Origin: a phage
Reading direction: 5' to 3' (one strand)
DNA: 64,000 nt
Sequence record: OZ413489.1
The translations under genes and the position numbers were made by a program. Below, piece by piece: positions 44,922 through 62,196 of the stretch (the stretch's first letter is position 1; every line of letters starts with the position of its first letter). Under the pieces are notes generated by a model. It had not been told where the DNA came from and searched no databases. It worked only from the letters and a program-made list of their open reading frames with translations.

Positions 44922-44928
44922 GTATGAT

Positions 44929-45261: not shown

Positions 45262-45282
45262 GAGAATGCAGGAGATAAAGTT

Positions 45283-46044: not shown

Positions 46045-46079
46045 TACTTGAAAATTCTTGGCATATCAAGTATAAGGGG

Positions 46080-46560: not shown

Positions 46561-46646
46561 GGATACTGTTTTATAGGAAATTGTTACGGAGGGTAATTAG
46601 CGTGCTAATTAAATTTATTAAATGCGAGGAGTTCTCATTTAGAATT

Positions 46647-46665
46647 TTGAATGATAATCATTCTC
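46647..46665. promoter_or_regulatory. Fur-box-like operator, copy A
   Basis: ttgAATGATAATCATTcTC: 15/19 to the Fur consensus GATAATGATAATCATTATC (15/16 over the core). Confidence 0.5.
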
Positions 46666-46677
46666 GTTTGCAGAATA

Positions 46678-46722
46678 ACGGGCAGGCCCGGTGATTGTCT
46701 CCCGGCCCCTACTGCCCCGGCT
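46678..46722 (+). other. Conserved hairpin element, copy A (core ggcaggcccggtgattgtctccc)
   Basis: GGGCAG-GCCCGG-loop-CCGGCCC-CTGCCC hairpin followed by ttgttatt; the 23-nt core recurs at 46822 and, inverted, at 54121. Confidence 0.4.
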
Positions 46723-46782
46723 TGTTATTATAGTATCACACAGGACAAAGAAAGCAAGGATTTTTTGCATAAATTTTTAAAT

Positions 46783-46801
46783 GATAATGATAACCGTTCT
46801 C
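46783..46801. promoter_or_regulatory. Fur-box-like operator, copy B
   Basis: GATAATGATAAcCgTTcTC: 16/19 to the Fur consensus; TTGCAT lies 16 bp upstream. Confidence 0.5.
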
Positions 46802-46807
46802 ATTTTA

Positions 46808-46858
46808 TGCAGCGCCCATCCCCGGTGGTTGTCTCCCCCGTCACCGGTGCCTGCCGTC
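46808..46858 (+). other. Conserved hairpin element, copy B (core ccggtggttgtctccc)
   Basis: CCGGTG...CACCGG stem around the loop gttgtctccccc; same core motif as copy A. Confidence 0.4.
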
Positions 46859-47060
46859 CTTTCGATAGGTATATCGTGCCACCTGGCGGGGCCGCTGTCA
46901 ACACTTTTCAAAAAATTTTTCTAACCTGATGCGCTAACCGCTGCAACCTGGCGGGGTCAGCCTGGCAGGACCTAACTGACCGGGTAGGAGAGAATGAAGG
47001 CTTGTAAACCTGGTGGGCCTATGCTACAGGATAGGTAACAATTGAAGAGGAGGTACAAAA

Positions 47061-47228
47061 ATGAAAGGTAATATGATCCCCCTAGAAAATGTAGCTATTA
47101 ATGACGCTGAGGCTATCGCCCTGGTTGAAAAGGCTATGGCGGGAGCGTTGGAACATAAAGAAGAGTACGAAAAATGGTGGTTAACCTGGCGGGGGCGGCA
47201 GGTGGATTCTATCATAAAAATAATTTAA
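47061..47228 (+). CDS. Small hypothetical protein (55 aa)
   Basis: Strong RBS gaagaggaggt, 7 nt before the ATG; not in the >=60 aa track. Confidence 0.45.
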   Translation: MKGNMIPLENVAINDAEAIALVEKAMAGALEHKEEYEKWWLTWRGRQVDSIIKII

Positions 47229-47235
47229 AATAGTC

Positions 47236-47265
47236 GTTGACAACAAGGTTAATCATGGTATTATT
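47236..47265 (+). promoter_or_regulatory. sigma70-type promoter
   Basis: TTGACA-17 bp-ATTATT (or TATTAT at an 18-bp spacer). Confidence 0.5.
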
Positions 47266-47314
47266 ACCCTACAAGGTGAACAACACCGCACTAACCAGTA
47301 AAGAGGATAAATTT

Positions 47315-47512
47315 ATGAACGCATACGGGATCAAAGTACGTCGCAACACTCGCCAGGTGGTCACCAATCAAGTGATTTGCCGGGTGGATGTAACCATCAA
47401 CAACGGGCAAGGCCTTTATAAATTTCGTCGCGGTCATAGCTATACCCTGCAACAGCTTAATCGTTGCGCCCTGACAAAAGGTCAGATCAACCATTGGTTT
47501 AATAAAAAATAA
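47315..47512 (+). CDS. Hypothetical small basic protein
   Basis: Track ORF 47237-47512 begins inside the promoter; ATG at 47315 with RBS aaagaggat. Confidence 0.45.
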   Translation: MNAYGIKVRRNTRQVVTNQVICRVDVTINNGQGLYKFRRGHSYTLQQLNRCALTKGQINHWFNKK

Positions 47513-47515
47513 GTA

Positions 47516-47544
47516 TTGACATACAGTCCGACACCAAATACACT
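47516..47544 (+). promoter_or_regulatory. sigma70-type promoter
   Basis: TTGACA-17 bp-TACACT. Confidence 0.5.
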
Positions 47545-47576
47545 AAAAGCACAAAAGACACTAAGAGGATAAAATC

Positions 47577-47975
47577 ATGAAAACCACTACCTTTAATTTT
47601 GATAATGCAGACTTTTCTTTTTCTGATGTCAAGAACTGCCGCCGTGATCGTGGATTTTACAAGGCTTATAATCTGGTGGGCCTGGACGATGACAATAATT
47701 TGCACGAAGTAGCTGAGATCCGGTATTATGCCGCCGCCAGCGGTAACACTAACTACTGCGTTTTTTGGATACACGACAACAAGAACAATAAGTACGGTTA
47801 TACTGGTGGCAAGGCTAGCGGTCACGGTTATGATAAAGCCAACGCTGCACTTGAAAGCGCATTAAATGCCATGGGAATCACTGCCGACGGCTGGATCTAT
47901 GAAGAAGAGTTTTTGGCGGCACTTGCTGCCCACCTGGGCTATAAAAAGCACATTGTAACATGCGCCCACGAATAA
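47577..47975 (+). CDS. Hypothetical protein
   Basis: 132 aa; RBS taagaggat. Confidence 0.5.
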   Translation: MKTTTFNFDNADFSFSDVKNCRRDRGFYKAYNLVGLDDDNNLHEVAEIRYYAAASGNTNYCVFWIHDNKNNKYGYTGGKASGHGYDKANAALESALNAMGITADGWIYEEEFLAALAAHLGYKKHIVTCAHE

Positions 47976-47986
47976 AAAAAAAATTA

Positions 47987-48014
47987 TTGACACGCTGCAA
48001 AATTCAAGTAAACT
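47987..48014 (+). promoter_or_regulatory. sigma70-type promoter
   Basis: TTGACA-16 bp-TAAACT, followed by a 5'-UTR hairpin. Confidence 0.5.
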
Positions 48015-48024
48015 AGGCACAAAA

Positions 48025-48043
48025 GGCGGGAATGTTTCCCGCC
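48025..48043 (+). promoter_or_regulatory. 5'-UTR stem-loop
   Basis: ggcggg-aatgttt-cccgcc between the promoter and the RBS of 48063. Confidence 0.45.
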
Positions 48044-48062
48044 AACACGAAGGAAAAAGATC

Positions 48063-48458
48063 ATGAATAAAAACGTACGCCGCATCATGAACGAACTGGC
48101 AAACGATGAAAAAATTATTGATATGCATTTGGTCAACATTTGCCGCCGTTGTGTAACATATAACAACCGCGCCGCAAAAGCGCGTGAGATGAACGCAAAA
48201 GGCACCTTAAAGCCCTTTCAGGTGGTTGTAAAATCTATGACCAGTGCAGCAGGCCAGGCGCATGACCACAACAACGGGAGCACTAATATTGATCCATCTT
48301 ACGTAATGAAACGGATCCGGACTTGCAAGAATAAAGAGCAGGTGTATAACGTCATAGATTGGCTGGACTCCCTGGGTGACGTGGTTTACAATAGGTTTTC
48401 TGCAGCTATTGAAATTCAGTTAGACAGGTTGGACGGGAAAGTACTGAAAACTTACTGA
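48063..48458 (+). CDS. Hypothetical protein
   Basis: 131 aa; RBS aaggaaaaag. Confidence 0.5.
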   Translation: MNKNVRRIMNELANDEKIIDMHLVNICRRCVTYNNRAAKAREMNAKGTLKPFQVVVKSMTSAAGQAHDHNNGSTNIDPSYVMKRIRTCKNKEQVYNVIDWLDSLGDVVYNRFSAAIEIQLDRLDGKVLKTY

Positions 48459-48460
48459 GT

Positions 48461-48506
48461 TTATTTTTAGATGGCCTTGACTCCAGGGCCATCAATAAAG
48501 TAAACT
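48461..48506 (+). promoter_or_regulatory. Repeated 46-bp promoter/palindrome element, copy 1
   Basis: ttatttttaGATGGCCttgactccaGGGCCATCaataaagtaaact: a TTGACT -35 inside an inverted repeat, TAAACT at -10 spacing; near-identical copies at 49089 and 52803. Confidence 0.5.
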
Positions 48507-48538
48507 AATCCCAGTTAAGCGAAAAAGGAGGCTTGAAG

Positions 48539-48658
48539 ATGAGCACTACACGCCAGCACACAAAGGTAACTATTATCGTTTGCATCATTGGTTATATCCT
48601 GGCGCAAATGTTGATGGGTAGCGCTAACGGTGTCGCAAAATTTTTCTTAAACTTTTAA
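48539..48658 (+). CDS. Small hydrophobic peptide (39 aa)
   Basis: RBS aaaggagg, 8 nt before the ATG; one predicted TM helix (TIIVCIIGYILAQMLMG). Confidence 0.45.
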   Translation: MSTTRQHTKVTIIVCIIGYILAQMLMGSANGVAKFFLNF

Positions 48659-48686
48659 TTGACAAGCTAACTTAGATCAGTATACT
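48659..48686 (+). promoter_or_regulatory. sigma70-type promoter
   Basis: TTGACA-16 bp-TATACT. Confidence 0.55.
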
Positions 48687-48698
48687 AAACACATAAAC

Positions 48699-48711
48699 GG
48701 GAAAACTTCCC
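48699..48711 (+). promoter_or_regulatory. 5'-UTR stem-loop
   Basis: ggg-aaaactt-ccc between the promoter and RBS aaaggagaaaac. Confidence 0.4.
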
Positions 48712-48735
48712 AGAACACCAAAAGGAGAAAACATT

Positions 48736-49086
48736 ATGAATACTTCCATCACTATGACCGCCGAAGAAAAAGCCCTGCAGATCGCCGCTCTGAAAAAACA
48801 GATTGCAGAACTTGAAGACAAGATCGACAATTTTGAAATCGACGAAGACAAATACGACGATAAATATGATGAATGGTTGGACGAGATCTACGGCGAAATT
48901 ATGATCGGAAACATTTCTTTTCTTCCGTCGCGTATCCTCAAGGAGCTAGATCCTATCGCTTACCGCTGCGGATTTAGCGACTACATCGACAGCCTGGATA
49001 TTGAGGACGATGAAGAATACCAGGAATTGCAGACAGAGCTTGAAGAAGTGAAAGAAGAGCTTGCAGAACTGGAAGAAAACGAGTAA
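48736..49086 (+). CDS. Hypothetical acidic coiled-coil protein
   Basis: 116 aa; heptad-like N and C termini; very acidic. Confidence 0.5.
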   Translation: MNTSITMTAEEKALQIAALKKQIAELEDKIDNFEIDEDKYDDKYDEWLDEIYGEIMIGNISFLPSRILKELDPIAYRCGFSDYIDSLDIEDDEEYQELQTELEEVKEELAELEENE

Positions 49087-49088
49087 GA

Positions 49089-49134
49089 TTATTTTTAGAT
49101 GGCCTTGACTCCAGGGCCATCAATAAAGTAAACT
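49089..49134 (+). promoter_or_regulatory. Repeated 46-bp promoter/palindrome element, copy 2
   Basis: Identical core to copy 1, directly after the stop at 49086. Confidence 0.5.
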
Positions 49135-49175
49135 TTATACTGTTAACACTGAACTAATGCATAGGAGTTAAAACC

Positions 49176-49421
49176 ATGGCAGCACTAATCACCAAATATT
49201 ATGCCCCTACCAACACCAAAAGCGCCCGTATCATGGTAAAAGGCTTCGGACGTAAAAAGGTTTACACTTGGGATTATTCCCTAGACATGGAAGACAACTA
49301 CACCAACGCGATGACCGATTTTATTAATGAACTAAATAAGCAGATCTTAACCAATTATAAGGTGACCGACATCGCCTATGTTGGGGAAGGTGGGATCTGT
49401 TTTGTCGGTATTGTCAAATAA
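49176..49421 (+). CDS. Hypothetical protein
   Basis: 81 aa; RBS ataggagtt. Confidence 0.5.
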   Translation: MAALITKYYAPTNTKSARIMVKGFGRKKVYTWDYSLDMEDNYTNAMTDFINELNKQILTNYKVTDIAYVGEGGICFVGIVK

Positions 49422-49496
49422 GCTGTTTTTTCGGTGGTCCTGGTGGCAGGGCCATCTATAAAGATAGTTTATTAACACCATGAAAGGAGAAAGTAC

Positions 49497-49850
49497 ATGA
49501 TCAGCGGGGCTAGTTTTATTATTGGCGCTATTGCTACAGCTTTAATTGTAAACAAGATCCAGGATAAAAAGGAAAGAGGAAGTACCGCCCTTGCAGAATA
49601 TCCATTTTGGACATTCAACGATAACGAAGATTATATTATAAAGTATAAAAATAAAGAAGGTGACCAAGTAACACCGCGACCGATCCCGGCTTACAAGATG
49701 CAGGAAACACTATACCGCTTGGAGGCAGGGGGCGCAAAAATTGTGGACTTTTGGGGATACGATCACACAGATCAGGAAGTTATAAAGCGCCGTATCCGGG
49801 CTATTCAGGCCAATATTGAAGTTAGCAAGGGGGGAATATATGAAGATTAA
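49497..49850 (+). CDS. Hypothetical protein with N-terminal hydrophobic segment
   Basis: 117 aa; RBS aaaggagaaag; N-terminal TM-like helix. Confidence 0.5.
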   Translation: MISGASFIIGAIATALIVNKIQDKKERGSTALAEYPFWTFNDNEDYIIKYKNKEGDQVTPRPIPAYKMQETLYRLEAGGAKIVDFWGYDHTDQEVIKRRIRAIQANIEVSKGGIYED

Positions 49851-50037
49851 TTTTGAGAAAATTGTAAAGCGATCTCATGATTCCGAAGAGCTGCCGGAAC
49901 GCCGCCAGCGTAACAATAAACTGAATAAGCCAAAAAGATTTGGGAAGATCTGGCGGAATCATTATGATCGTAAATTGCCGGGCCTCCTTTTGGAACGTGA
50001 ACGGCAGGCGGAACGATACCGCCACAAAGGCAACTAA
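49840..50037 (+). CDS. Hypothetical small basic protein
   Basis: Track ORF from 49816; ATG at 49840 after RBS aagggggg. Confidence 0.4.
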   Translation: MKINFEKIVKRSHDSEELPERRQRNNKLNKPKRFGKIWRNHYDRKLPGLLLERERQAERYRHKGN

Positions 50038-50044
50038 CAACCAA

Positions 50045-50073
50045 CGCCCCGCCATCGTGCGGGGCTTTTTATT
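50045..50073 (+). terminator. Rho-independent terminator
   Basis: gccccgc-catcgt-gcggggc + tttttattt. Confidence 0.75.
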
Positions 50074-50195
50074 TCTACCCTACGAATAGCGCCCCTGGTT
50101 GGCCCCACAACGCCCTAAAAGCCCCCTACCCATGCAATCCCATTTCTTAACCTGAAAACATCGTCAAAGGCTGTTTTAAAGCGTTAAAAATATTG

Positions 50196-50223
50196 TTGAC
50201 ATCTAAAATATTCTAGATATACT
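50196..50223 (+). promoter_or_regulatory. sigma70-type promoter
   Basis: TTGACA-16 bp-TATACT. Confidence 0.55.
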
Positions 50224-50258
50224 AATCACATCAAAGCGAGAAGTAAGGAGTAAACGCC

Positions 50259-50519
50259 ATGCGTAAATTAAAAAATTTTGATAAAGTTGATATTGTCCTG
50301 AATAATTTTTACTACTGCAATAACAAGGCCGTTTGGTGGCGTGATAGTTCCACCGATAAAGTCAAGGCGCGCTTTCTCCAGGGGCACTGGCAAGGCCGCC
50401 CAGTGATTAAAATCATGGGGCAATTGGTAGCGTTTAAAAATTGCCGCCGTGTTGATGACGTTGAAGAGATTTTAAACATTTTGCGCCACAATAATTTAAA
50501 AAATAGTGTTGACAAGTAA
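50259..50519 (+). CDS. Hypothetical protein
   Basis: 86 aa; RBS taaggagtaaac. Confidence 0.5.
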   Translation: MRKLKNFDKVDIVLNNFYYCNNKAVWWRDSSTDKVKARFLQGHWQGRPVIKIMGQLVAFKNCRRVDDVEEILNILRHNNLKNSVDK

Positions 50520-50536
50520 ATCTCAATAAGTATAAT
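50509..50536 (+). promoter_or_regulatory. sigma70-type promoter
   Basis: TTGACA-16 bp-TATAAT overlapping the stop of 50259-50519. Confidence 0.6.
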
Positions 50537-50546
50537 TAAAAACACA

Positions 50547-50565
50547 GGCGGGAAAACTTCCCGCC
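50547..50565 (+). promoter_or_regulatory. 5'-UTR stem-loop
   Basis: ggcggg-aaaactt-cccgcc, then RBS acaggagaaaat. Confidence 0.45.
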
Positions 50566-50593
50566 ACTAACAAAGAAAACAGGAGAAAATATC

Positions 50594-51217
50594 ATGACCA
50601 CCGTTAACATTACCACAGGTTACAATTTATCTTTCGACGTGCTGACCGACGAACAAAAAGAAAAAGCCGTGGAAATGGTCCGCGAAAGAGAAGAACACAG
50701 CGGGGATAACTTTTTTGCAGAAAGTGTAATTGAGTACTATAAAGAATATGTTTTTCCAGAGTACGGCCTTGAAGATACCGATGTACATTGGTCAGGCTTT
50801 TGGTGCCAGGGTGACGGCGCGTCAATCAGTGCGGAAAACGTGGATTTAGAAAAATTCTTGCGTAAAGTCAAGTCTCTGACTAAATTCCGCTCAATTCGTC
50901 ACTTGTTCGGCACAATGCACGATGGCGAGTTATCCGCAAGTGTTGAGCGTGATCCATATAGCCGCTATAGTCACGAAAACACTGTAAACGGATACATCGA
51001 TACTACATGGCTAGACCTGACCACCAAACAAGAAAACAAAGTGGAAGATCTGGAAGAGCTGATCACCGAGACGGTACGGGAGTTATCCCGCAAGGTTTAC
51101 GTAGACCTGGAGGAGGCCTATCTTGAACAATTCACCGCCGAAAACTTGATCGGCCTTATCGAGGCCAATGATTGGCGGTTTGATGTCGATGAACACGGTA
51201 AGATGACTTTTTCATAA
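50594..51217 (+). CDS. Hypothetical protein
   Basis: 207 aa. Confidence 0.55.
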   Translation: MTTVNITTGYNLSFDVLTDEQKEKAVEMVREREEHSGDNFFAESVIEYYKEYVFPEYGLEDTDVHWSGFWCQGDGASISAENVDLEKFLRKVKSLTKFRSIRHLFGTMHDGELSASVERDPYSRYSHENTVNGYIDTTWLDLTTKQENKVEDLEELITETVRELSRKVYVDLEEAYLEQFTAENLIGLIEANDWRFDVDEHGKMTFS

Positions 51218-51225
51218 ATAAAGTG

Positions 51226-51253
51226 TTGCAATAACCTAAAAACCTGCTATATT
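51226..51253 (+). promoter_or_regulatory. sigma70-type promoter
   Basis: TTGCAA-16 bp-TATATT, followed by a 5'-UTR hairpin. Confidence 0.45.
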
Positions 51254-51262
51254 AAAACTCAA

Positions 51263-51281
51263 GGGGCAAGACGTTTGCCCC
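51263..51281 (+). promoter_or_regulatory. 5'-UTR stem-loop
   Basis: ggggcaa-gacgt-ttgcccc, then RBS aaagaggtaaac. Confidence 0.45.
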
Positions 51282-51305
51282 ACACAAAACAAAGAGGTAA
51301 ACATT

Positions 51306-51686
51306 ATGAAAAACACTACTAAAGCTATTGACACCGTTATGTTTAACCTGGTTACATTCCGTGAAGATATGAAAGATCTTCCACGTGAAACAGTGTGCGA
51401 TCACATTGAAAACTATCGCAAACTAATCAAAGAGTTGCCTTTAAAACGTGACCAGTATGCGGCTAACGCTATGCTTAACGCCATGATCAAAAAGATGATT
51501 CAGTGTGATTTAACTCTGGCCTATGATTATGCAGGTGGTCGTTTTGCAGTATACAATCAGCCCGTGCCTGGTATGAGCACCACCGAAGAATTGCACGCGT
51601 TAAATCTGAAACAAGATGTATGGGATAACATGCCCCGCGTGGTGGTGTGGGCAGAAAGCGGAAAGATTTACGGCGATAATTTTTAA
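51306..51686 (+). CDS. Hypothetical protein
   Basis: 126 aa. Confidence 0.5.
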   Translation: MKNTTKAIDTVMFNLVTFREDMKDLPRETVCDHIENYRKLIKELPLKRDQYAANAMLNAMIKKMIQCDLTLAYDYAGGRFAVYNQPVPGMSTTEELHALNLKQDVWDNMPRVVVWAESGKIYGDNF

Positions 51687-51696
51687 TCAGGTAACA

Positions 51697-51722
51697 GGCG
51701 GCATATTTGCCGCCTTATTGTT
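51697..51722 (+). terminator. Rho-independent terminator
   Basis: ggcggc-atattt-gccgcc + ttattg. Confidence 0.55.
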
Positions 51723-51750
51723 AAACAGAACTGCAAAAGAGGTACATAGA

Positions 51751-52122
51751 ATGGAATTTATTATTTTGGCTGTAGTAGTTGCCTTGTTCAACGCCTGGAT
51801 CGCTGGCAAGATAGGTAGATCCGCTTTTCTATGGTTTGTTATATCTATTTTCCTGGGAGTGGTTGCAACTATTGTATTGGTTATCCTTGCAATTGTTGAC
51901 AAGGGCGATAATAGAAAGGGTAAAGTGTTTTCCGACCTGTATGACGCACAAACGTTTGTCAACGCCTATTATAGTGATCTTCCAGTCTCCCTACGCTGCA
52001 GCCTGGCACAACAGGTTTTTGATGAGGCTAAAACCAGAGACCAAGCCCATGAGATATGTTTAACTGAAGCGGATCGCCTATTTGAGAGGAATAGAAAATA
52101 TGTGGACCAGCCGTTTAAATAA
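51751..52122 (+). CDS. Membrane protein (two predicted TM helices)
   Basis: Track ORF from 51616 overlaps the upstream gene and terminator; ATG at 51751 follows RBS aaaagaggtac; begins MEFIILAVVVALFNAWIAG. Confidence 0.5.
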   Translation: MEFIILAVVVALFNAWIAGKIGRSAFLWFVISIFLGVVATIVLVILAIVDKGDNRKGKVFSDLYDAQTFVNAYYSDLPVSLRCSLAQQVFDEAKTRDQAHEICLTEADRLFERNRKYVDQPFK

Positions 52123-52321
52123 CGCCACGTTAATTAATCCCTTTAGTGAAGATTTGAAGCCAGCCGCCTGGCGTGACGGATTCAATAACGAACGCTTTAT
52201 TTTCAGGCCTGATCTTGAGGAATTTTATAACAATGGATCGAACAACAGCGGAGATAATTTTTCTTGTGGTGTGCGTGGTGATAGGACTCCTGGGGGCCAT
52301 TGTAAACCACGTCACTACTAA
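52100..52321 (+). CDS. Hypothetical small protein (uncertain frame)
   Basis: ATG with RBS gagaggaa; overlaps an alternative-frame peptide (52233-52358) that has a clear TM helix, so one of the two is probably spurious. Confidence 0.3.
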   Translation: MWTSRLNNATLINPFSEDLKPAAWRDGFNNERFIFRPDLEEFYNNGSNNSGDNFSCGVRGDRTPGGHCKPRHY

Positions 52322-52341
52322 CAGGAGGGAAGGGGGAGACG

Positions 52342-52461
52342 ATGACAACCAAAGATAAGCCATGCGCTGATAAGGTGCGCCGTGTTATGGTATGGCTTGA
52401 GATTATCGCCCTTGAAATATTGTTAGGCGTAGGGATGTACTTTATCGCTGTAAGTAACTAA
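52342..52461 (+). CDS. Small hydrophobic peptide (39 aa)
   Basis: RBS gggggaga before the ATG; TM helix VMVWLEIIALEILLGVGMYFIAV; terminator follows. Confidence 0.45.
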   Translation: MTTKDKPCADKVRRVMVWLEIIALEILLGVGMYFIAVSN

Positions 52462-52463
52462 GA

Positions 52464-52496
52464 GCGGCCCCCGATCATGGGGGCCTATCTTTTAAA
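52464..52496 (+). terminator. Rho-independent terminator
   Basis: ggccccc-gatcat-gggggcc + tatcttttaaaaaattttt. Confidence 0.65.
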
Positions 52497-52515
52497 AAAT
52501 TTTTCTTCCGGGGTG

Positions 52516-52544
52516 TTGCAATCCGGTCCGGAATGTGGATAATA
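52516..52544 (+). promoter_or_regulatory. sigma70-type promoter
   Basis: TTGCAA-17 bp-ATAATA; the -10 region contains TGTGGATAA. Confidence 0.5.
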
Positions 52545-52599
52545 ACAATCAACGGGGAGCTAATCCCCACCACCACAAAAACCAGAAAGGAGAAACAAA

Positions 52600-52800
52600 A
52601 TGAGCAACAATATCCGCGTTATTAACTTCAAAAAAGAAGAAAAAATTGCCGTGCTGATTGACGGTCAAGAAATCTTCAAGGGCGACTATGAAGATCATCA
52701 AACGGCGATTAGTATCACTCGCGTGATTGGTTATCATAATTTCTACCCCCAAGGCGCTGAGGCAGCAGTTAAACGAATCAAAGAGATTGTAGGCCTGTAA
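52600..52800 (+). CDS. Hypothetical small protein
   Basis: 66 aa; RBS aaaggagaaac. Confidence 0.5.
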   Translation: MSNNIRVINFKKEEKIAVLIDGQEIFKGDYEDHQTAISITRVIGYHNFYPQGAEAAVKRIKEIVGL

Positions 52801-52802
52801 AA

Positions 52803-52848
52803 TTTATTTTTAGATGGCCTTGACTTCAGGGCCATCGATAAAGTAAAT
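52803..52848 (+). promoter_or_regulatory. Repeated 46-bp promoter/palindrome element, copy 3
   Basis: aatttatttttagatggccttgacttcagggccatcgataaagtaaatt; two substitutions relative to copies 1 and 2. Confidence 0.5.
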
Positions 52849-52893
52849 TTAAACCCTGTTAAAATACCACGCAGTTAACAAGGAGTGATAGAC

Positions 52894-53193
52894 ATGTTTA
52901 TCCAGGCTAATAATCTTTATTTCTTTGATGGTCAGATCGTAGATGGTGTGGAAGTGGAGATCACCGGGTGCCCTGGCGGTCAGGCTATGACTTTTCGGAA
53001 TAATGCCTTTGATGATTCTCATATCGTTATAAGAATGGAAGTTACGAAGCTGGACGACAAGAAAACACTTATTGACTATTCTGTGAAAGATCATCCAGAC
53101 TACCGCATGATCCATGGTGATTTGTGCATTGTTGACCGTGACAAGGTGGGCGGCATTGTGATCGCTATTGTGAACGATGTTTTCTCAAACTAA
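52894..53193 (+). CDS. Hypothetical protein
   Basis: Track ORF from 52885; in-frame ATG about 9 nt in, after RBS aacaaggagtg. Confidence 0.5.
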   Translation: MFIQANNLYFFDGQIVDGVEVEITGCPGGQAMTFRNNAFDDSHIVIRMEVTKLDDKKTLIDYSVKDHPDYRMIHGDLCIVDRDKVGGIVIAIVNDVFSN

Positions 53194-53210
53194 TTTCAGC
53201 AGGCGATTTT

Positions 53211-53561
53211 ATGAAAGTCAAACTATATTACCTTAATGAGCTTAACCCCCTTGCCCAGGTCCGCGCCCTAGCTAATACCTTGATTTGTGAGAAATCTGTA
53301 TATTGTGTTGAGCTTAACGCCATGCGTGAACGTCTCAAAGGTGGTTACTTTGACATCCATGCTGCAATCAACGGCCTGAATATGGAATTTATACGCTTAC
53401 GTAACAGCCGCCGGAATCTGGCAAGAATGGAACAAGATCCGGCCCACCTTCGTAAACTGGTTATTGAAAATCATCTGATGTTTAATGCCGAGGGGGATTA
53501 TTACCATTTTCACCGCAAACGCTGGTACCGTGGCGGCAATACAGGCAAGAATGCAAAATAA
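53211..53561 (+). CDS. Hypothetical basic protein
   Basis: 116 aa ORF. Confidence 0.5.
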   Translation: MKVKLYYLNELNPLAQVRALANTLICEKSVYCVELNAMRERLKGGYFDIHAAINGLNMEFIRLRNSRRNLARMEQDPAHLRKLVIENHLMFNAEGDYYHFHRKRWYRGGNTGKNAK

Positions 53562-53597
53562 GGCCCCTAGCAGGGCCTGCAGCAATATAATCACATA

Positions 53598-53631
53598 AAG
53601 GCCATGCGGTTGCATGGCCTTTATTATTTTG
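53598..53631 (+). terminator. Rho-independent terminator
   Basis: aaaggccatgc-ggtt-gcatggccttt + attatttt. Confidence 0.7.
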
Positions 53632-53678
53632 GCGTTACAACGGCATACGGGGCGCTTAAAAAATTTTTAAAGAAGTAC

Positions 53679-53707
53679 TTGCATCATTCCCGACAATATG
53701 GATAATA
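53679..53707 (+). promoter_or_regulatory. sigma70-type promoter
   Basis: TTGCAT-17 bp-ATAATA; same -10 context (tgGATAATAa) as the promoter at 52516. Confidence 0.5.
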
Positions 53708-53770
53708 AGAGTTGTCGAGGGGGAGGCCCCCAATCGTTGACCAGATAGATAGGAGTTAAAATCATGGCTA

Positions 53771-54034
53771 TTGTTACCGCTGGCTATCTTCAAAGATGCG
53801 GAAGCAAAACAACGCCGGATCTCAATACATGAGATCATCAACCTTAACGCTGGAGGCACACCATACCGCCCAGGACCTGGCCGTGAGATGGACAATACGC
53901 TAGCGATCCTGAAGATACGCCGTAAACGGTCCTCCCTTACTCTGGACTCATTACACACAATGCAGCCTCCGTTCCAGGTGACCGGGAAACGGATCGCCAG
54001 GTCCTGGACAAAGGCCAATGATCGGACCGTATAA
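53771..54034 (+). CDS. Possible gene with aberrant start (candidate frameshifted gene or non-coding transcript)
   Basis: 87-codon ORF with only a TTG start; a well-placed RBS (taggagttaaaatc) precedes an ATG at about 53764 in another frame that stops after 22 codons. Confidence 0.25.
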   Translation: MLPLAIFKDAEAKQRRISIHEIINLNAGGTPYRPGPGREMDNTLAILKIRRKRSSLTLDSLHTMQPPFQVTGKRIARSWTKANDRTV

Positions 54035-54120
54035 ATAAAAGTGTTTTGGTACTGATTTTGGGGTTGACTTGTTCGGCCCCTTTTGCTATTCTTATTAAAC
54101 GGGCGGCACTTGGGAACAGG

Positions 54121-54143
54121 GGGAGACAATCACCGGGCCTGCC
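54121..54143 (-). other. Conserved hairpin-core motif, copy C (inverted)
   Basis: Minus-strand ggcaggcccggtgattgtctccc, identical over 23 nt to copy A at 46681. Confidence 0.4.
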
Positions 54144-54168
54144 TGTCATATAAGAACTATAAAAACCG

Positions 54169-54197
54169 TTGACATCTGCCATGGGGTGGGGTAACAT
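54169..54197 (+). promoter_or_regulatory. sigma70-type promoter
   Basis: TTGACA-17 bp-TAACAT upstream of 54252. Confidence 0.45.
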
Positions 54198-54251
54198 TTA
54201 TCTTGAAGGGGCAAAAGTGCCCACACAACAACCAAGAGAGAGGAAAACACT

Positions 54252-54524
54252 ATGTCAAACTGGATTAATCAAGAAGTCGAATCACGTTTTAATGCTATTT
54301 GGGATCTCATCGAAAAAGAAGACGGCACATCAAGCCCCTACCTCAACAATTTGGAATTCCATTTTGTGGAAGCGATGAACGCAGAACATGATCACGAAGG
54401 TGGCGCGGATGAGTTCGCTAAAGGTTATGGCTTTAACAATGCCAACGAAATGATCGAGGCGGTAGTACTCCAGGCTGAGGAAGATTATCAACTAAAAACG
54501 CTTGAATTCTGCCGCCGCAAGTAA
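54252..54524 (+). CDS. Hypothetical acidic protein
   Basis: 90 aa; RBS agagagaggaaaac. Confidence 0.5.
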   Translation: MSNWINQEVESRFNAIWDLIEKEDGTSSPYLNNLEFHFVEAMNAEHDHEGGADEFAKGYGFNNANEMIEAVVLQAEEDYQLKTLEFCRRK

Positions 54525-54530
54525 TAAGAT
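54502..54530 (+). promoter_or_regulatory. sigma70-type promoter
   Basis: TTGAAT-17 bp-TAAGAT at the end of the upstream gene; a 5'-UTR hairpin gggccaaaaggccc (about 54539-54552) follows. Confidence 0.45.
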
Positions 54531-54584
54531 AATGACACGGGCCAAAAGGCCCACTAATCAGAACCGCACAAAGAGGTAAACATC

Positions 54585-54848
54585 ATGAAACGTCTTGATC
54601 AGCTCAAATTAGTTCAATATATGGCTTATCGTGTTCTTGAAGTCCAGAAAGGTAGCAAAAAAGAGGTTTGCGAGAAAGCTTATAAGATCTTCACTCGCAA
54701 AAAAGATGACTGGATGCTACGCCAGACTAAAAAGGCTGACATCTTGGGGTACCTGGAAGAAGAGATCCGCCTTGAAGAGCAAGAAGAGATCCGCCGTAGT
54801 GAGGCAGATTATCAGGCAGCTTGGGAAAACTGGATGAGCAACAAATAA
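54585..54848 (+). CDS. Hypothetical protein
   Basis: 87 aa; RBS aaagaggtaaac; last plus-strand gene before the non-coding region. Confidence 0.5.
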   Translation: MKRLDQLKLVQYMAYRVLEVQKGSKKEVCEKAYKIFTRKKDDWMLRQTKKADILGYLEEEIRLEEQEEIRRSEADYQAAWENWMSNK

Positions 54849-54867
54849 TACAACAAGGTGCACGGTC

Positions 54868-54893
54868 AGGGGCTTAAAGCCCCTTTCTTTTTG
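54868..54893 (+). terminator. Rho-independent terminator
   Basis: aggggc-ttaa-agcccct + ttctttttgtct. Confidence 0.75.
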
Positions 54894-55770
54894 TCTCCTC
54901 TTTTCCTACCACAAATGGCCCCGCCTGGCAAATGGAATAATCAACAAGCCAGCAATTAACCCCACTGTACAAACATACATATAAAATAACTATTGCATAA
55001 TTTTTCATTGTGTGGTAGCAGTGCCATTTTTACACGTTTTTCCTTCCAAAATTGCACGTAATGCAGCATTTGCACAAAATTTAACCTGATGCATATCTTC
55101 AATAGCTTGTCAACAACTAAAAATCTTTATAAGTCATACACTTACATAACTACAAAAACGTTTTCTACGTGAAAAATCGAGTATAACTATAGCCGCCAGA
55201 TCTCAGAATTTACGTACGCTCGCCATTCTATAGCCTGCTAAGCATTTATTCCAACCATAGAATAACGGAATAGTCAATACCTGCATAAAATAATTATTCG
55301 TGTAAACTGCATAACATAAATCGGCCCAGGTGTCAACATTTTTCGTAAACAGTCTGGAATTGTCACGTTAGGTTACCATAAGCAGAGAAATCTTTAGTCG
55401 TCTAATGTTTACTGTACATTACTATACTGACTGGAATCATTAGATGACTAAGAGAAAGATAAGAAATAATTAATAATGTAATTATTTTACCTGTAACAAT
55501 AAGGCAACTATGCAAACGAATGGCATGGCGCGACGGAGTCGCGACATAATATAAAAGCAGTAACCATCACCCCCGTGATAGTTTGTCTGCAAACTATTAA
55601 TCAGATCATAGTTGCCTTGTATTTAGTTAATCATGACATGACAAGCAAGGCAACTATAGATCTGCTAATAGTTGCCCTGCTTTTATATTATGTCATGCTA
55701 ATTATAATCAGTGCGATTATTGTCATGTATAATTATTGTCATGCAAACGAATGGCATGGCTGATTATCGG

Positions 55771-55860
55771 TGTGTAAACAGTCAATCATGTAAATGGTTA
55801 GCATGTGAACAATCAGGAATGTAAACAATCCAGTGTGTAAACTAATAGGTGTGTAAAAGT
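55771..55860. repeat. TGTAAAC-type iteron cluster
   Basis: gtgtaaaca, atgtaaatg, atgtaaaca, gtgtaaact, gtgtaaaag within about 90 bp. Confidence 0.45.
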
Positions 55861-56001
55861 GTCATGTTGTGTCAGTTAGGTCACATTATGTCAGACAAGT
55901 TTTTCTCCTCTTTGTCAAGTGCTGCATGAAAAATTTACAAGCTTGTATGGTAGCATTTTTGCGGCCCTGTTTACATTCAGTAATGTATGTATAATCCTTG
56001 T

Positions 56002-56165
56002 TGTGTGGGCGTTTAGACGTCTAGACGGTTGGAAGTCCACAGGTCAATATCTAATCTATCGGCTGCTAACTATATCCCACACATGTGTGGGCGTTTAGAC
56101 GTCTAGACGGTTGGAAGTCCACAGGTCAATATCTAATCTATCGGCTGCTAACTATATCCCACACA
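56002..56165. repeat. Perfect tandem duplication, 2 x 82 bp
   Basis: The unit tgtgtgggcgtttagacgtctagacggttggaagtccacaggtcaatatctaatctatcggctgctaactatatcccaca occurs twice head-to-tail with no mismatch seen; each copy contains the palindrome TAGACGTCTA; the junction forms CCCACACATGTGTGGG. Confidence 0.8.
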
Positions 56166-57461
56166 AATAGTAAGAAATATGATTGTTATATGCGTAAACT
56201 GTAACTCATGTTATCAATCCCTGTATGGATCGCCAGTGGTGCGCATAATAGGTATTATGTTAAATTGCCCGTAATGATAACAGTTCTCACAATGATAGGT
56301 ATTCTCATTCATCCACACAAAATAGGTTGCAAATGTTGTGCCACTGTGTGAACGGCCTGGCCTATTAATTTCTCTCACTGCCTCGATATTTGAGAATTGT
56401 TATAAGAATGAGAAGTATTCCCATTCCGTCCGCCTGGCAGCACTCCTGTAGGTCCTGCAAGGACTCTAGCTGAAAGCTAGACCCTTCGGGCCTCCCTGTA
56501 GGTCAGGTCAAAATCGTGGTAGAATTGGGCCTGTTCAGATATTTCTGGCTGACTCTTCAGGTCTGTGTGGGAAAAGCCAACCTCTCCGGCGGGGCAGGGG
56601 GTCATGACGGGAAAATTGCAGGTCAATTAAAAAATTTACGTGGTGTATGAAGCGCTCTTCAGGTAAGGCATGTATTATGGGATGAAACCCTCTTCAGGCA
56701 ATGATATTTGTGGGTGTGATATTTGCTGGAAAGCCAGATATGACGGGACTCCCGGCGGGGATGGGGTAGTACAGACAGGGAAAATATGAGAATGTAGTTG
56801 GGGAAATTGATCAGACAGGTAGAGTATGGAATATGTTACAAGTATGTTAAATATGGAGGTTGAATATCTGTAGGATTTGTGTGTAAAATCAAAGACTTAA
56901 GGGGTGTTGTGGTATTTTCTATAAATAATTCAAGTTTAATAGGCAATATTTGTCTCTATCCGCTTTGTGTGGTAAACAGATTCAGATTAGATTGGTTTAC
57001 AAGTGTATACATAATATACAAATTAAAGATACAAGAAACCCCCCTCCCCCTTCGGCTACCATTCACCTTTTCCTCTGACTGGTACTTAAACACTTATTCA
57101 GACTCTTCAGGTTATCACCCATATATCATATGGCAGTGACTGGTGTCCTCCGGCCCCTCTTTCGTCACCCGTCCGCTTCGCCATGCTAATGCCATAGCCA
57201 ATGGTTCGGTTGTTCACTCTGTTCACTCAGGTGTATCTCCATACCCCTTCAAACCGAAGAGAACAGAAAACCCGAATTACTCGGTAAAAGAAAAGAGAAG
57301 AACTTAATTTTATCAGGATAGGCAAGAATGTCAAGGCATGACTGCTCACTAAACAAGCAAACAGTCATGTGTGGAAGGTAAGTGATTGTGGTGGTGGGAA
57401 ATTTAGTTGAAAGATGTGTTATAGGTGCTCCCAGCACTTTAGCCGGGTAGCTAATTGTGTG

Positions 57462-57743
57462 TCAGTCCAGTGGTTCATCACCTACTTCACTGAAATCAAT
57501 GTTCATGGTCTCCTCCCAACCATCAATCTCAGCACCAGAGTAGAGATCTTTAGGACTTACTCCCAAAGCATCAGCAACAGAGTCCATATTTAACACCTCT
57601 GGCAGGTATGATTCATCGAATTCAAGGTAAATCAGGCCACGAGTGTTGTCAGCTCCACCAAATATTTCTATCTTCATGAAATCTCCTCTGGGAATGAGAG
57701 TGTGAACAGGGTTTATACGTTCCAATGCGCTGGAATTATGCAC
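57462..57743 (-). CDS. Hypothetical acidic protein
   Basis: 93-aa track ORF; possible true start at the internal Met (MKIEIFGG). Confidence 0.45.
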   Translation of the reverse strand: MHNSSALERINPVHTLIPRGDFMKIEIFGGADNTRGLIYLEFDESYLPEVLNMDSVADALGVSPKDLYSGAEIDGWEETMNIDFSEVGDEPLD

Positions 57744-57797
57744 GTTTGCCTCTTCAGGCCATGCTTCAGCATGAGGAACCTGTGTGGGCTCGGTGCT

Positions 57798-58010
57798 TCA
57801 TAGTCTACCACCCCTGAACTCTTCGTGCTCAGGCATAATAGAGAACCAGATATCTACGATGTCTTCCCACGTCAGGTCATCAGCCTCAGGATCTACCTGG
57901 AGCGAAGATGAAGAATCTTCAGAATCGAAGTTTTCCTCTTGCACTGGCTCAGTCAAGGGACATATAGTCACTCCTTTGGATGTCTCTTCAGATGCATGTG
58001 TGTTTATCAT
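57798..58010 (-). CDS. Hypothetical acidic protein
   Basis: 70 aa; ATG overlaps the stop of the upstream micro-ORF. Confidence 0.45.
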   Translation of the reverse strand: MINTHASEETSKGVTICPLTEPVQEENFDSEDSSSSLQVDPEADDLTWEDIVDIWFSIMPEHEEFRGGRL

Positions 58011-58096
58011 GTTCCACCCGTGAGTATTCCGGCAACAGCTGCTATGGACGTAATGATCATCAGGATCACCACTAAAACTTCGGACAATGTTCTCAT
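58007..58096 (-). CDS. Small hydrophobic peptide (29 aa)
   Basis: Minus-strand ATG after RBS tggag; MRTLSEVLVVILMIITSIAAVAGILTGGT; sits downstream of the minus-strand promoter at 58129-58158. Confidence 0.4.
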   Translation of the reverse strand: MRTLSEVLVVILMIITSIAAVAGILTGGT

Positions 58097-58128
58097 TGTG
58101 TACTCCATATTCTACAAACTATGTGTGG

Positions 58129-58158
58129 ATACTATCACTGGATCGGTAATGTGTCAAC
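58129..58158 (-). promoter_or_regulatory. sigma70-type promoter (minus strand)
   Basis: Minus-strand reading TTGACA-17 bp-TAGTAT. Confidence 0.5.
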
Positions 58159-58312
58159 AGAAACGCCGCGAGGGTTTGGTTAAAATCCGAGCGTATGGTG
58201 ATTTGGGTCAAAACGGACGTGCGTTCTCGCTACGCTCGAAATATGGAGTTGTTTGTAGGGAGCTCTTAAACGCTCTGTAATGAAATTAACTACCCAAGGT
58301 ATGCAATCGTGC

Positions 58313-58346
58313 ACCAGACAAAGAAAAGGACGCCACAGAGCGTCCT
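58313..58346 (-). terminator. Rho-independent terminator (minus strand)
   Basis: Minus-strand hairpin ggacgctctgtggcgtcc followed by ttttctttgtct, downstream of the gene ending at 58371. Confidence 0.65.
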
Positions 58347-58370
58347 AGGTGTCTTAAATTTGATATTTTG

Positions 58371-58682
58371 CTATACCCACGAGGGCTTATCAAGGTTGGA
58401 GTAGCTGAAAGGTGTCAAAAGGTGACTGTCAAAATCTCTCAAACTATCCAAATCTTTTTCCTCGTCCTGACACCATCTGTGCCTACATTTGTTGTTGTAG
58501 TGCATGGAATGCATAGCGTTCTGCAACTTAACAGGCACAAGTGATTCAGGAGTAGATAGTATTGTTGGGTATGCCAGAACCACCTCAAACAGTGGAAACA
58601 CATCGAAACTAAAGTCTACCTCTGCAGAGGTTGATGGCATATAGGAGTATTTAGCCGCCTTTGTAGACATAATCCACCTCAC
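58371..58682 (-). CDS. Hypothetical protein
   Basis: 103 aa; start overlaps the upstream stop. Confidence 0.5.
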   Translation of the reverse strand: MRWIMSTKAAKYSYMPSTSAEVDFSFDVFPLFEVVLAYPTILSTPESLVPVKLQNAMHSMHYNNKCRHRWCQDEEKDLDSLRDFDSHLLTPFSYSNLDKPSWV

Positions 58683-59011
58683 ACAGGTTTGATAATACCT
58701 TCACCGAATAGCTCTTCGTATCTAATCTTGTCCGGATCCCACTCCTGTATAATTTCGAAGACAATATCCAACCCAGGAACAATCACTTCTCCAGTGTCAA
58801 GCTTAGCAAGAACAAAACCGGAAGGTTGAATGGTTTCCCAGTTACGGCGATCAGAATAAAATACTTCGAAAATATCACCAACCTCAATCCGTTTCTGTTG
58901 CTCAAGATGCTGAAGGTTCTCTTTCATACGGATGCAGCGTATTTTTCGTGCAGGCCATAGACCACCTGCATCACGTTCATTCAATTCTTTTACAGTGATC
59001 GGTATACCCAT
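58679..59011 (-). CDS. Hypothetical protein
   Basis: 110 aa; RBS gaaggagac. Confidence 0.5.
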   Translation of the reverse strand: MGIPITVKELNERDAGGLWPARKIRCIRMKENLQHLEQQKRIEVGDIFEVFYSDRRNWETIQPSGFVLAKLDTGEVIVPGLDIVFEIIQEWDPDKIRYEELFGEGIIKPV

Positions 59012-59023
59012 CTCAAGTCTCCT

Positions 59024-59056
59024 TCATGGATAGTAAAAAGAGGGGCCTAAGCCCCC
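59024..59056. terminator. Hairpin terminator (functional on minus strand, possibly bidirectional)
   Basis: agaggggcctaagcccccctct flanked by aaaa / ttt tracts; lies after the minus gene ending at 59067. Confidence 0.55.
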
Positions 59057-59066
59057 CTCTTTGTCA

Positions 59067-59372
59067 TTATTCTACAGAGCGTTTGAACAGAATGTCTGCC
59101 TCAGACATGTGCTCAACCTCTTCTTCGATTTTAGCTCGACGTTTTTCAGCCTCATATCGAATATCGAACTCGGTAGCCACCAGAGATTTGATGAATTTAG
59201 GAGAATACAGATGATCCTGCTTCTCAACAAGAATGATATCCTTGATGGCATCTTTCAAATCTTTAATCTGAAGCTGGAGTTCCACCAGTTCTTCAATTGT
59301 TTTGCGAAGGCGATCACGTTCTGCAGTGTCAGAAGGAAGAGAGGTGAACAGTTCAACTTTAGATTTAGCCAT
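59067..59372 (-). CDS. Hypothetical coiled-coil protein
   Basis: 101 aa; RBS taaggagac; charged heptad-like sequence. Confidence 0.5.
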   Translation of the reverse strand: MAKSKVELFTSLPSDTAERDRLRKTIEELVELQLQIKDLKDAIKDIILVEKQDHLYSPKFIKSLVATEFDIRYEAEKRRAKIEEEVEHMSEADILFKRSVE

Positions 59373-59400
59373 AGTAAGAGTCTCCTTATGTTGTTTTAAA

Positions 59401-59652
59401 TTAACGTTCTACAAAAATACCGTTCAGTTCAATAACCAGGAATTTCTGGTCTTCACTATCGTCTCGTGCCAGCACCTCACAGACGTATCGGTCATCCCCA
59501 TCATCATCGCAGTCAAATACAAGACTGAGGACTTTATCATGGTAAACCTTCGCCACTACCGCCTCGTAAGTATTGCCGATTGTGAATCCAAGATAATCTC
59601 CGATGCATTTGACAACAACATGGTCTCCAGCATTTAAGTCAATCTTCGTCAT
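59401..59652 (-). CDS. Hypothetical protein
   Basis: Track ORF to 59718; RBS aaggag precedes the internal Met (MTKIDLNAGDHVV) at about 59652. Confidence 0.45.
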   Translation of the reverse strand: MTKIDLNAGDHVVVKCIGDYLGFTIGNTYEAVVAKVYHDKVLSLVFDCDDDGDDRYVCEVLARDDSEDQKFLVIELNGIFVER

Positions 59653-59779
59653 TACTGCGCTCCTTGGGTAATAATACTGTATGTAAAACTTTAACCAGAG
59701 ATGTGAATAACGCCCCAAAACACACCGATAGCGCTAAAACAGACAAGGCCATCATTAAAGCTTCAGTAAAATCCGTCAT
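59642..59779 (-). CDS. Small membrane peptide (45 aa)
   Basis: Minus-strand ATG after RBS gaggtgagga; TM helix ALMMALSVLALSVCFGALF; overlaps the next start. Confidence 0.4.
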
Positions 59780-59807
59780 TCCTCACCTCTTGTTAGTCAC
59801 TATACTA

Positions 59808-60071
59808 TCATTTATCCTTGTCGTCAAGAACTTTTTTAAATCTTTCAGGGATATCTCCCGTTCTTAGATAGTTCATGACCTCGCAAGGTTCCCACTTGAA
59901 TTTCTTACAGAGCAGGGCGGCTGAGATTGTTTCATTGCGAAAAGAAAGGATATTAATATCCCACTCTGAGAACCCCAACTTCCGAAGGGTAGCTACAGAA
60001 ATCCTCACCGCAACCCAGCAGCAAAAACATGCAACAAACGCCACTGCTACAACCCACATCAGGATGTTCAT
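59808..60071 (-). CDS. Membrane protein
   Basis: 87 aa; N-terminal TM helix ILMWVVAVAFVACFCCWVAV. Confidence 0.5.
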   Translation of the reverse strand: MNILMWVVAVAFVACFCCWVAVRISVATLRKLGFSEWDINILSFRNETISAALLCKKFKWEPCEVMNYLRTGDIPERFKKVLDDKDK

Positions 60072-60160
60072 ATAAGCACCTTACTGAAATACAAGACACA
60101 GTGTTAAGGTTACTGACCAGCAAATAATTAACAGTGCCGTTGCAACCTTGGCAAGATTTA

Positions 60161-60448
60161 TCATAGTGCCTCTAAGATTTCATATCCTTCGGGTCGGAAT
60201 ACAAGCCACTCCGTGGCTCCGTTTGGTCGATACGCTTTATACAGAACAACCTGATCTCGGCACATGCACATGGCTACATAGTTTTCATCCACACCTGCAG
60301 CCTGCATTGCATCTTCTTCTCCGGCAACCGCTTTGCTTACAACTTCCTTGGTAGGCAGGTGTGCGATCAGCTCGTCACCATCATTAATTCCAAAATGGCT
60401 GAGTTCTCCATTGGTATCTTTGATCTTAATCTTAACCAGATCTTTCAT
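60161..60448 (-). CDS. Hypothetical protein
   Basis: 95 aa; start overlaps the upstream stop. Confidence 0.5.
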   Translation of the reverse strand: MKDLVKIKIKDTNGELSHFGINDGDELIAHLPTKEVVSKAVAGEEDAMQAAGVDENYVAMCMCRDQVVLYKAYRPNGATEWLVFRPEGYEILEAL

Positions 60449-60777
60449 TAGTCTTTCTCCAGGTTCAAAGGTCCTAAGATTTCATATGCCAGATTAGAAG
60501 TTACAAGAGGGTCTTCTGCGTCTTTAGTATTATACCACCCGTGAATAACCAGAGTCCCACTTTGTTTCATGTCCAACTGTAACTCTTCTGCCGTTTCCTC
60601 ATCCAGCTCCAAGATTTCCATAAGGTATTTGATGTTAGGGAGGTATGCAGCTGTTACAGTCCCCTCTACCAGACCTTCAGGCCAACCTACATCTGGATGA
60701 CAAGTAGGAACCAGGTTGGTCAGCTTAATGGTGTACGCTTTTTCTGCACGAGCCTTCAGTAACGGGTCAATCTTCAT
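60448..60777 (-). CDS. Hypothetical acidic protein
   Basis: 109 aa; ATGA coupling. Confidence 0.5.
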   Translation of the reverse strand: MKIDPLLKARAEKAYTIKLTNLVPTCHPDVGWPEGLVEGTVTAAYLPNIKYLMEILELDEETAEELQLDMKQSGTLVIHGWYNTKDAEDPLVTSNLAYEILGPLNLEKD

Positions 60778-61127
60778 TATTCGTCCTCCTCTTCGGTACC
60801 TGCTTCCAGTAATAAGTTAAGAATATCTTCTGCACAAGGCTCATAGAACTCTTGGCCTTCATTATCGATGATTTTATAGTCATCTCCACGAATAATCAGG
60901 GGATCACTCTCAAAATTATCGAGACCTTTAACAACGACAACACGATCGATTGCCATCATTGTAAGAACTTTATCGACATCTTCCTCTGCTACACCATACT
61001 GCAGCAGAATGTCTTTGGTAGGAGGAACAGCATCCACCACAACGCCGTTACCAAAACCTTCTGGAAGTTTAGCTAAAATATCTTCCGGAACCACATTCAC
61101 ATCAAAACCGGTAATTTCTACTTTCAT
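60777..61127 (-). CDS. Small acidic protein, tandem paralogue family
   Basis: 116 aa; begins MKVEITGF; Asp/Glu-rich; resembles 61128-61388 and 62552-62821 in start and composition. Confidence 0.5.
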   Translation of the reverse strand: MKVEITGFDVNVVPEDILAKLPEGFGNGVVVDAVPPTKDILLQYGVAEEDVDKVLTMMAIDRVVVVKGLDNFESDPLIIRGDDYKIIDNEGQEFYEPCAEDILNLLLEAGTEEEDE

Positions 61128-61388: not shown

Positions 61389-61464
61389 TCGGTCTCCTGT
61401 CTTGTTAAGATGAAGGTATTATTTCACACAGGGTTGGCGTTGTCAACACCTGTGTGCAAGAAAA

Positions 61465-62192: not shown

Positions 62193-62196
62193 ATTA

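Follow-up and report, generated by a model that had tools for sequence, protein, structure and literature searches.

Why should a promoter and a strong ribosome-binding site precede a stretch of phage DNA that holds no clean open reading frame? The question is raised by positions 53640-54100 of the window, as the whole stretch of 64,000 nucleotides analyzed here is called (record OZ413489.1; features lie on the plus strand unless stated otherwise). A preliminary description had listed a number of sequence features for this segment, all of which are indeed present in the window: the frame of the ATG at 53764 stops after 22 codons (ORF 53764-53832, with a TGA stop), the +1 frame is open over 53771-54034 (87 aa) with only a TTG as start, and ORFs overlap on both strands, including a 157-aa ORF on the minus strand at 53656-54129. 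As explanations it had offered a recently frameshifted gene, programmed recoding or a structured non-coding RNA. Comparison with orthologous loci, which it had proposed as a check, resolved the segment into parts of two separate genes that lie 2,319 bp apart in relatives. Accordingly, the segment is best explained, with a probability of roughly 0.88, as the scar of a recent 2,319-bp microhomology deletion, which fused the start of one gene (gene A) out of frame to the interior of another (gene B). This reading is carried by direct observations, namely the collinearity with relatives, the microhomology, the reading frames and the near-identity of the remnant to intact orthologues. Of the three earlier explanations the frameshifted gene came closest, in that the locus is recently disrupted, but the lesion is a deletion junction at 53777-53784 and not a small indel near 53765-53775.

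The window belongs to a Vequintavirus (rV5-like) coliphage, this being the sole type of match when 53000-55000 and 44000-64000 were compared with phage records by megablast. Records labeled “UNVERIFIED Campylobacter phage” are among the matches and also belong to the genus Vequintavirus. These MG0656xx GenBank records (e.g. MG065661.1), which give C. jejuni as host, are classified as Vequintavirus and are 92-97% identical to the window's coliphage, so that their host label looks doubtful. The top match over 20 kb is vB_EcoM_10C2_SA_NWU (10C2; 96% identity), whose matching span is ~2.8 kb longer than that of the window. The locus sits within a block of small early genes that are individually equipped with a promoter and a terminator. 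A tRNA/tmRNA scan found none, and a group I catalytic intron (RF00028; 64.7 bits, E=4e-14) is located at 36881-37116.

In most relatives the match to the window is one-sided, ending at ~53784 or beginning at 53777. In blastn alignments with 10C2 the left flank (52500-53784) shows 99.7% identity and reaches codon 7 of gene A, while the right flank (53777-54885) aligns at 95% from codon 19 of gene B on, the identity of the right flank to 10C2 and ECP2303 being 95-98.6%. The left and right alignments overlap on exactly 8 nt, CCGCTGGC, and 2,319 bp of 10C2 lie between them. In both ECP2303 and 10C2 the octamer is found at the two parental breakpoints, 2,319 bp apart (positions 182 and 2501 of the ECP2303 segment, and the matching sites in 10C2), with one copy in codons 5-7 of gene A and the other in codons 19-21 of gene B, and a single copy is kept at the junction in the window (53777-53784). 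An exact short repeat at both breakpoints, of which one copy is left at the joint, is the classical sign of a deletion between short direct repeats (microhomology deletion). Substrates for such an event are plentiful, since the parental region from gene A to gene B contains 101 exact 8-mer direct-repeat pairs.

The missing 2,319 bp comprise codons 8-94 of gene A, seven small genes and codons 1-18 of gene B, and a search covering the rest of the 64-kb window did not find this segment elsewhere. The nine lost or inactivated genes correspond to phrogs 12610, 9227, 9374, 871, 5988, 9845, 16005, 9599 and 13681; all seven deleted genes match PHROGs, and a match of one of them to DUF7249 is the sole exception to the Pfam, PADLOC and PDB searches of the lost proteins, which found no function. 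When the nine proteins were compared with the window by tblastn, only residues 19-103 of gene B were recovered. The junction is known from one assembly only, being absent from phage records and having 0 exact matches in viral contigs, metagenome contigs and genome contigs, and the exact product of the TTG ORF has 0 matches in the protein-position index. HdK5 was considered as a match spanning the junction (84% identity), but actually has an intact gene A. A literature search on Vequintavirus deletions brought up no account of this particular locus.

Gene A and gene B are each a real gene of their own, with full-length matches to phrog_12610 (E=1.4e-63) and phrog_13681 (E=1.9e-57), respectively. 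In ECP2303 and 10C2, gene A is a CDS of 285 nt encoding 94 aa and gene B one of 312 nt encoding 103 aa. The window matches the start of gene A up to and including ATGGCTATTGTTACCGCTGGC, and from CCGCTGGCTATCTTCAAAG on it corresponds to the interior of gene B, from codon 19. The remnant of gene A (53764-53784) consists of its first seven codons, ATG GCT ATT GTT ACC GCT GGC, and is identical to the gene A start in ECP2303 and 10C2. The remnant of gene B (53777-54034) consists of codons 19-103 and the stop codon, without its own start, RBS and the 18 N-terminal residues; in relatives its own ATG lies 54 nt 5' of the breakpoint, in the sequence that is missing from the window. Since the frames of gene A and gene B differ by +1 at the joint, the gene A start runs into the -1 frame of gene B, which gives rise to the chimeric ORF of 22 codons (53764-53832; MAIVTAGYLQRCGSKTTPDLNT), whose peptide is presumably meaningless, and to the 87-codon frame without a proper start. 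The ATG and the long +1 frame were thus never one gene, because the former is that of gene A and the latter represents codons 19-103 of gene B.

Gene B is intact and full-length in all 55 phage records carrying it. Its orthologues reach down to 63% amino acid identity, in Certrevirus and Justusliebigvirus phages, it is always located 3' of a ~195-nt gene with a 4-nt overlap, and its sense frame has a dN/dS of 0.09-0.39. In the window neither gene forms a full-length ORF: gene A is reduced to its expression signals and seven codons, and gene B lacks its ATG, its first 18 codons and the upstream ~195-nt partner gene. The 18 residues that are absent, MIAITPTVLDWYRQRIAP, are the best-conserved part of the gene B protein. 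What is left of gene B has not decayed, with 0 stops and 0 indels, an amino acid sequence identical to that of ECP2303 and nimi, and 1 synonymous difference in 255 nt. So close a match to intact orthologues, with one synonymous base as the sole change, indicates that the deletion is recent. The identity of gene B also accounts for the local rise in GC content, since gene B itself is GC-rich in all orthologues (52-57%). The segment had been described as GC-richer than its surroundings, which holds (0.51 for 53750-54124 versus ~0.42-0.47 on either side), the excess being only modest.

The expression signals in front of the joint are those of gene A. The left boundary of the transcription unit is set by the intrinsic terminator of the upstream gene (53211-53561), which is located at 53595-53624 and consists of a 13-bp stem followed by a T tract; relatives show compensatory changes in this stem (GGCCATGC/GCATGGCC versus GGCTATGC/GCATAGCC). 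The putative promoter region of gene A (53655-53706) contains an A/T tract, CTTAAAAAATTTTTAAAG, a -35 element TTGCAT at 53679-53684 and a -10 element GATAAT at 53701-53706, separated by a 16-nt spacer. This is the promoter that had been placed near 53679-53707. With 8 of 12 consensus positions it is below the threshold of the consensus promoter scan, which missed it, and conservation was taken as evidence instead: across 7 related Vequintavirus genomes neither the hexamers nor the upstream A/T tract nor the RBS changes, while spacer and flanks vary. The consensus scan named another promoter site, which overlaps the RBS and is probably spurious. Just 3' of the promoter, a 5'-UTR hairpin GGGGG-AGG-CCCCC (53719-53731) is present in both the MFE and centroid folds, and a hairpin is kept at this position in relatives with altered sequence (C9: GGGAGG..CCTCC) by compensatory substitutions. 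The Shine-Dalgarno (SD) sequence AGGAG of gene A (53751-53755) lies 8 nt 5' of the ATG at 53764 and 15 nt 5' of the TTG at 53771, and is identical in relatives. As noted before, its context is shared with the gene at 49176: the 19-nt initiation region TAGGAGTTAAAAYCATGGC occurs in exactly 2 copies in the window (49162-49180 and 53750-53768), where shuffled sequences lead one to expect 0. The two genes that have this region in common are apparently unrelated, and the likeness does not continue into the sequence upstream of it.

Several other explanations can be weighed against the deletion. The two frames, one closed after 22 codons and the other open for 87, would also result from a one-base sequencing error or a recent 1-nt frameshift in an otherwise intact gene. 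However, the sequence is that of gene A for 20 nt after the ATG and that of gene B from there on, two pieces separated by 2,319 bp in relatives, and intact gene B begins with the 18 conserved residues that are absent from the window, so that no single-base correction restores either gene. The preliminary description held that orthologues with an intact ATG-initiated ORF in the same frame would make this a sequencing error; the argument does not apply here, since a one-base correction yields an A-B chimera that lacks the most conserved 18 residues of gene B, and not an orthologous protein. An error of this kind can practically be discounted. An assembly or library artefact, i.e. a false join of co-existing strains or a collapsed region in a phage that really keeps the full 2.3 kb, is unlikely. 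It would fit with the uniqueness of the junction among all collections searched and with the change of the best relative at this point, where 10C2 is ~100% identical on the left and ~96% on the right, but an identity of 8 nt would be far too short to mislead k-mer or overlap assemblers, and microhomology at the joint is a signature of real illegitimate recombination. Furthermore, ECP2303 is ~99% identical for ~750 nt on each side of the junction, and switches of the closest relative are frequent in the region (e.g. at ~53000 and ~54500). These switches across the locus represent fine-scale mosaicism. 10C2 and MaxTheCat are ~100% identical to the window left of the junction and ~92-96% right of it; 10C2, MaxTheCat and AlexBoehm are 99.6-100% identical over 49250-53750 and 92-96% over 53777-56260, and the ~99% identity of ECP2303 is confined to 53000-54750.

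The scar could in principle be functional as a new gene, encoding a truncated gene B protein initiated at the TTG at 53771 under the early promoter of gene A, or a functional 22-aa peptide. The TTG ORF is open for 87 codons, undecayed, and stands behind a conserved promoter and RBS, yet the absence of decay is expected anyway for a recent event, the 18 residues that such a protein would lack are the best-conserved ones of the family, and no relatives with the same form were found in the collections searched. Moreover, by the established rule of SD-to-start spacing the TTG is poorly placed: its distance to the SD is 15 nt, and 7 nt before it stands an ATG of a different frame whose spacing is optimal. 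Altogether, such a gene is improbable. Programmed +1 ribosomal frameshifting, which would join the ATG frame to the 87-codon frame, has in its favor that the ATG frame, preceded by a strong RBS, is overlapped by a frame in +1. This two-frame layout was made by the deletion, whereas the orthologues have two separate single-frame genes; no orthologue shares the arrangement, and the junction is unique to the window sequence. No recognized slippery site with a stimulator can be read in 53764-53832, and the product would be an A-B chimera without evolutionary history, so that recoding, as had been suggested, has hardly any likelihood.

A structured non-coding RNA would have its stem formed by two complementary 12-mers, CCAGGACCTGGC (53870-53881) and GCCAGGTCCTGG (53996-54007), which are present and 100% complementary, with 114 nt between the arms. 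In the RNA fold of 53715-54060 the MFE structure pairs both 12-mers, with a z-score of -2.25 that is marginal, 2 of 100 shuffles folding as well. However, both 12-mers are copies of the near-palindrome CCAGGWCCTGG and are therefore automatically reverse-complementary, and a Markov simulation gives a mean of 0.93 perfect 12-mer inverted pairs within 200 nt per 64-kb window, so that one such pair is expected by chance. In relatives the region codes for protein and is under purifying selection. The first 12-mer corresponds to PGPG, in a variable loop of gene B, and the second to ARSW, within the conserved RIAR(S/A)W motif. Among the 10 orthologues tested the complementarity falls to 3-9 of 12 positions in distant ones without any compensatory change, and the loop with the first arm is deleted in several, being deleted or altered in Certrevirus orthologues. 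Rfam searches found no match at the locus, either at the gathering score (whole window) or at E<=1 (53560-54260). The fold and covariance analysis, which had been put forward as a check, thus does not bear out a structured RNA, which is very unlikely. The 157-aa antisense ORF (53656-54129, minus strand) is likewise not regarded as a gene. Only in Vequintavirus sequences does gene B keep an open antisense frame (102 codons); in distant orthologues this frame reaches 40-68 codons, and since it is interrupted in these, the ORF is a by-product of composition.

For the deletion, a plausible course of events can be outlined. The parental genome would have been rV5-like and locally similar to ECP2303 and 10C2, with a terminator, promoter, gene A, seven small early genes, gene B and a terminator. 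Illegitimate recombination would then have joined the two copies of CCGCTGGC and removed 2,319 bp, by replication slippage, copy-choice or single-strand annealing, with either a single genome or two co-infecting ones involved. Because the identity to 10C2 and MaxTheCat drops from ~100% to ~96% right at the junction, a crossover between genomes or a mosaic parent may be considered as possible as a simple intragenomic deletion. Such an event would leave the promoter, 5'-UTR hairpin, RBS, ATG and seven codons of gene A, fused in +1 to codons 19-103 of gene B and the gene B terminator. The scar unit is probably still transcribed early, into an RNA of ~370 nt that would end at the hairpin at 54060-54080. 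Ribosomes initiating at the well-placed ATG, 8 nt from the SD, would yield a nonsense peptide of 22 aa. Translation of the gene B remnant would be poor or practically absent, because the remnant's sole in-frame start is the distant TTG, 7 nt after the competing ATG.

The nine accessory early genes were lost or inactivated, and this loss appears to be tolerated, since relatives vary naturally from 0 to 8 genes in the block. Between gene A and the conserved gene at 54252, C9 has 0 genes, 241Ecol014PP has 2, ECP32 has 3, and 10C2 and ECP2303 have 8. There is a slim chance that the deletion was selected rather than neutral, either because a lost early protein triggered host abortive infection or another defence, or because the truncated gene B gained a new activity through weak TTG initiation under the strong early promoter of gene A; that all nine proteins are of unknown function and that the remnant is undecayed are both compatible with such selection. 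In 241Ecol014PP, ECP32 and C9 alike, homology resumes at window position 54081, right after the predicted terminator-like hairpin and T tract 3' of gene B (54060-54090), which marks a recurrent module boundary of the relatives. The hairpin (54060-54092) overlaps a promoter-like site, TTGACT / 17 nt / TATTCT, and the boundary at 54081 is reminiscent of the promoter/terminator cassettes of T4-type phages discussed below.

Deletions between short direct repeats have classically been described for E. coli lacI and for non-essential early regions of the phages T7 and T4. The event in the window resembles these, with parental repeats of 8 nt, of which one copy was kept, and the loss of everything in between, in a dispensable early block. 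It is the same in kind, and only the Vequintavirus allele of the window is unrecorded in the collections searched; the event is of an ordinary, already known kind and mechanistically nothing new. In T4-type phages, PeSL (promoter-early stem-loop) cassettes mediate modular shuffling in hyperplastic regions (Arbiol et al. 2010, PMC2839356; PMC4122927). The block in the window is similar in that it consists of small accessory genes with sigma-70-type promoters and stem-loops, in that relatives differ by whole-gene indels, and in that the right boundary of these indels recurs at 54081, after a terminator hairpin overlapping a promoter-like site. By contrast, the breakpoints in the window lie inside two coding sequences, both of which were destroyed, and not in intergenic cassettes. 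Cyanophage S-PM2 spontaneously lost an ‘ORFanage’ region, for which mispackaging was proposed as the mechanism (PMC4503421). In this case, too, small genes without known function disappeared from a myovirus as one contiguous block, and S-PM2 stayed viable; the junction in the window differs in showing intragenic microhomology.

For annotation, this means that the 22-codon ORF and the 87-codon TTG ORF should not be called genes, and that the locus should be marked as the truncated remnant of two genes. The phage can be regarded as a natural knock-out, in that it can probably propagate on its isolation host without nine of the small early genes of rV5-like phages. In the variable early block, genes would be lost not only through exchange at intergenic cassettes but also through microhomology deletions with intragenic breakpoints.

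A second indel is found ~0.85 kb downstream, at 54866-54885, where the extra ~545 nt of ECP2303 and 10C2 harbor a CDS of 420 nt and one of 186 nt on the opposite strand. Since the two alignment pieces share a terminator hairpin, CAGGGGC...GCCCCT, this indel may have arisen by exchange at a repeated hairpin rather than inside a gene. Further downstream, ~55000-56200 is AT-rich (GC 0.32-0.38) without a long ORF, and holds several perfect inverted repeats of 12-19 nt (55501/55607, 55608/55646 and 55543-55560/55677-55694). Its counterpart in 10C2 is ~2.5 kb long, unannotated and located between gene blocks of opposite orientation, and the region could be a replication origin, or a regulatory or RNA region.
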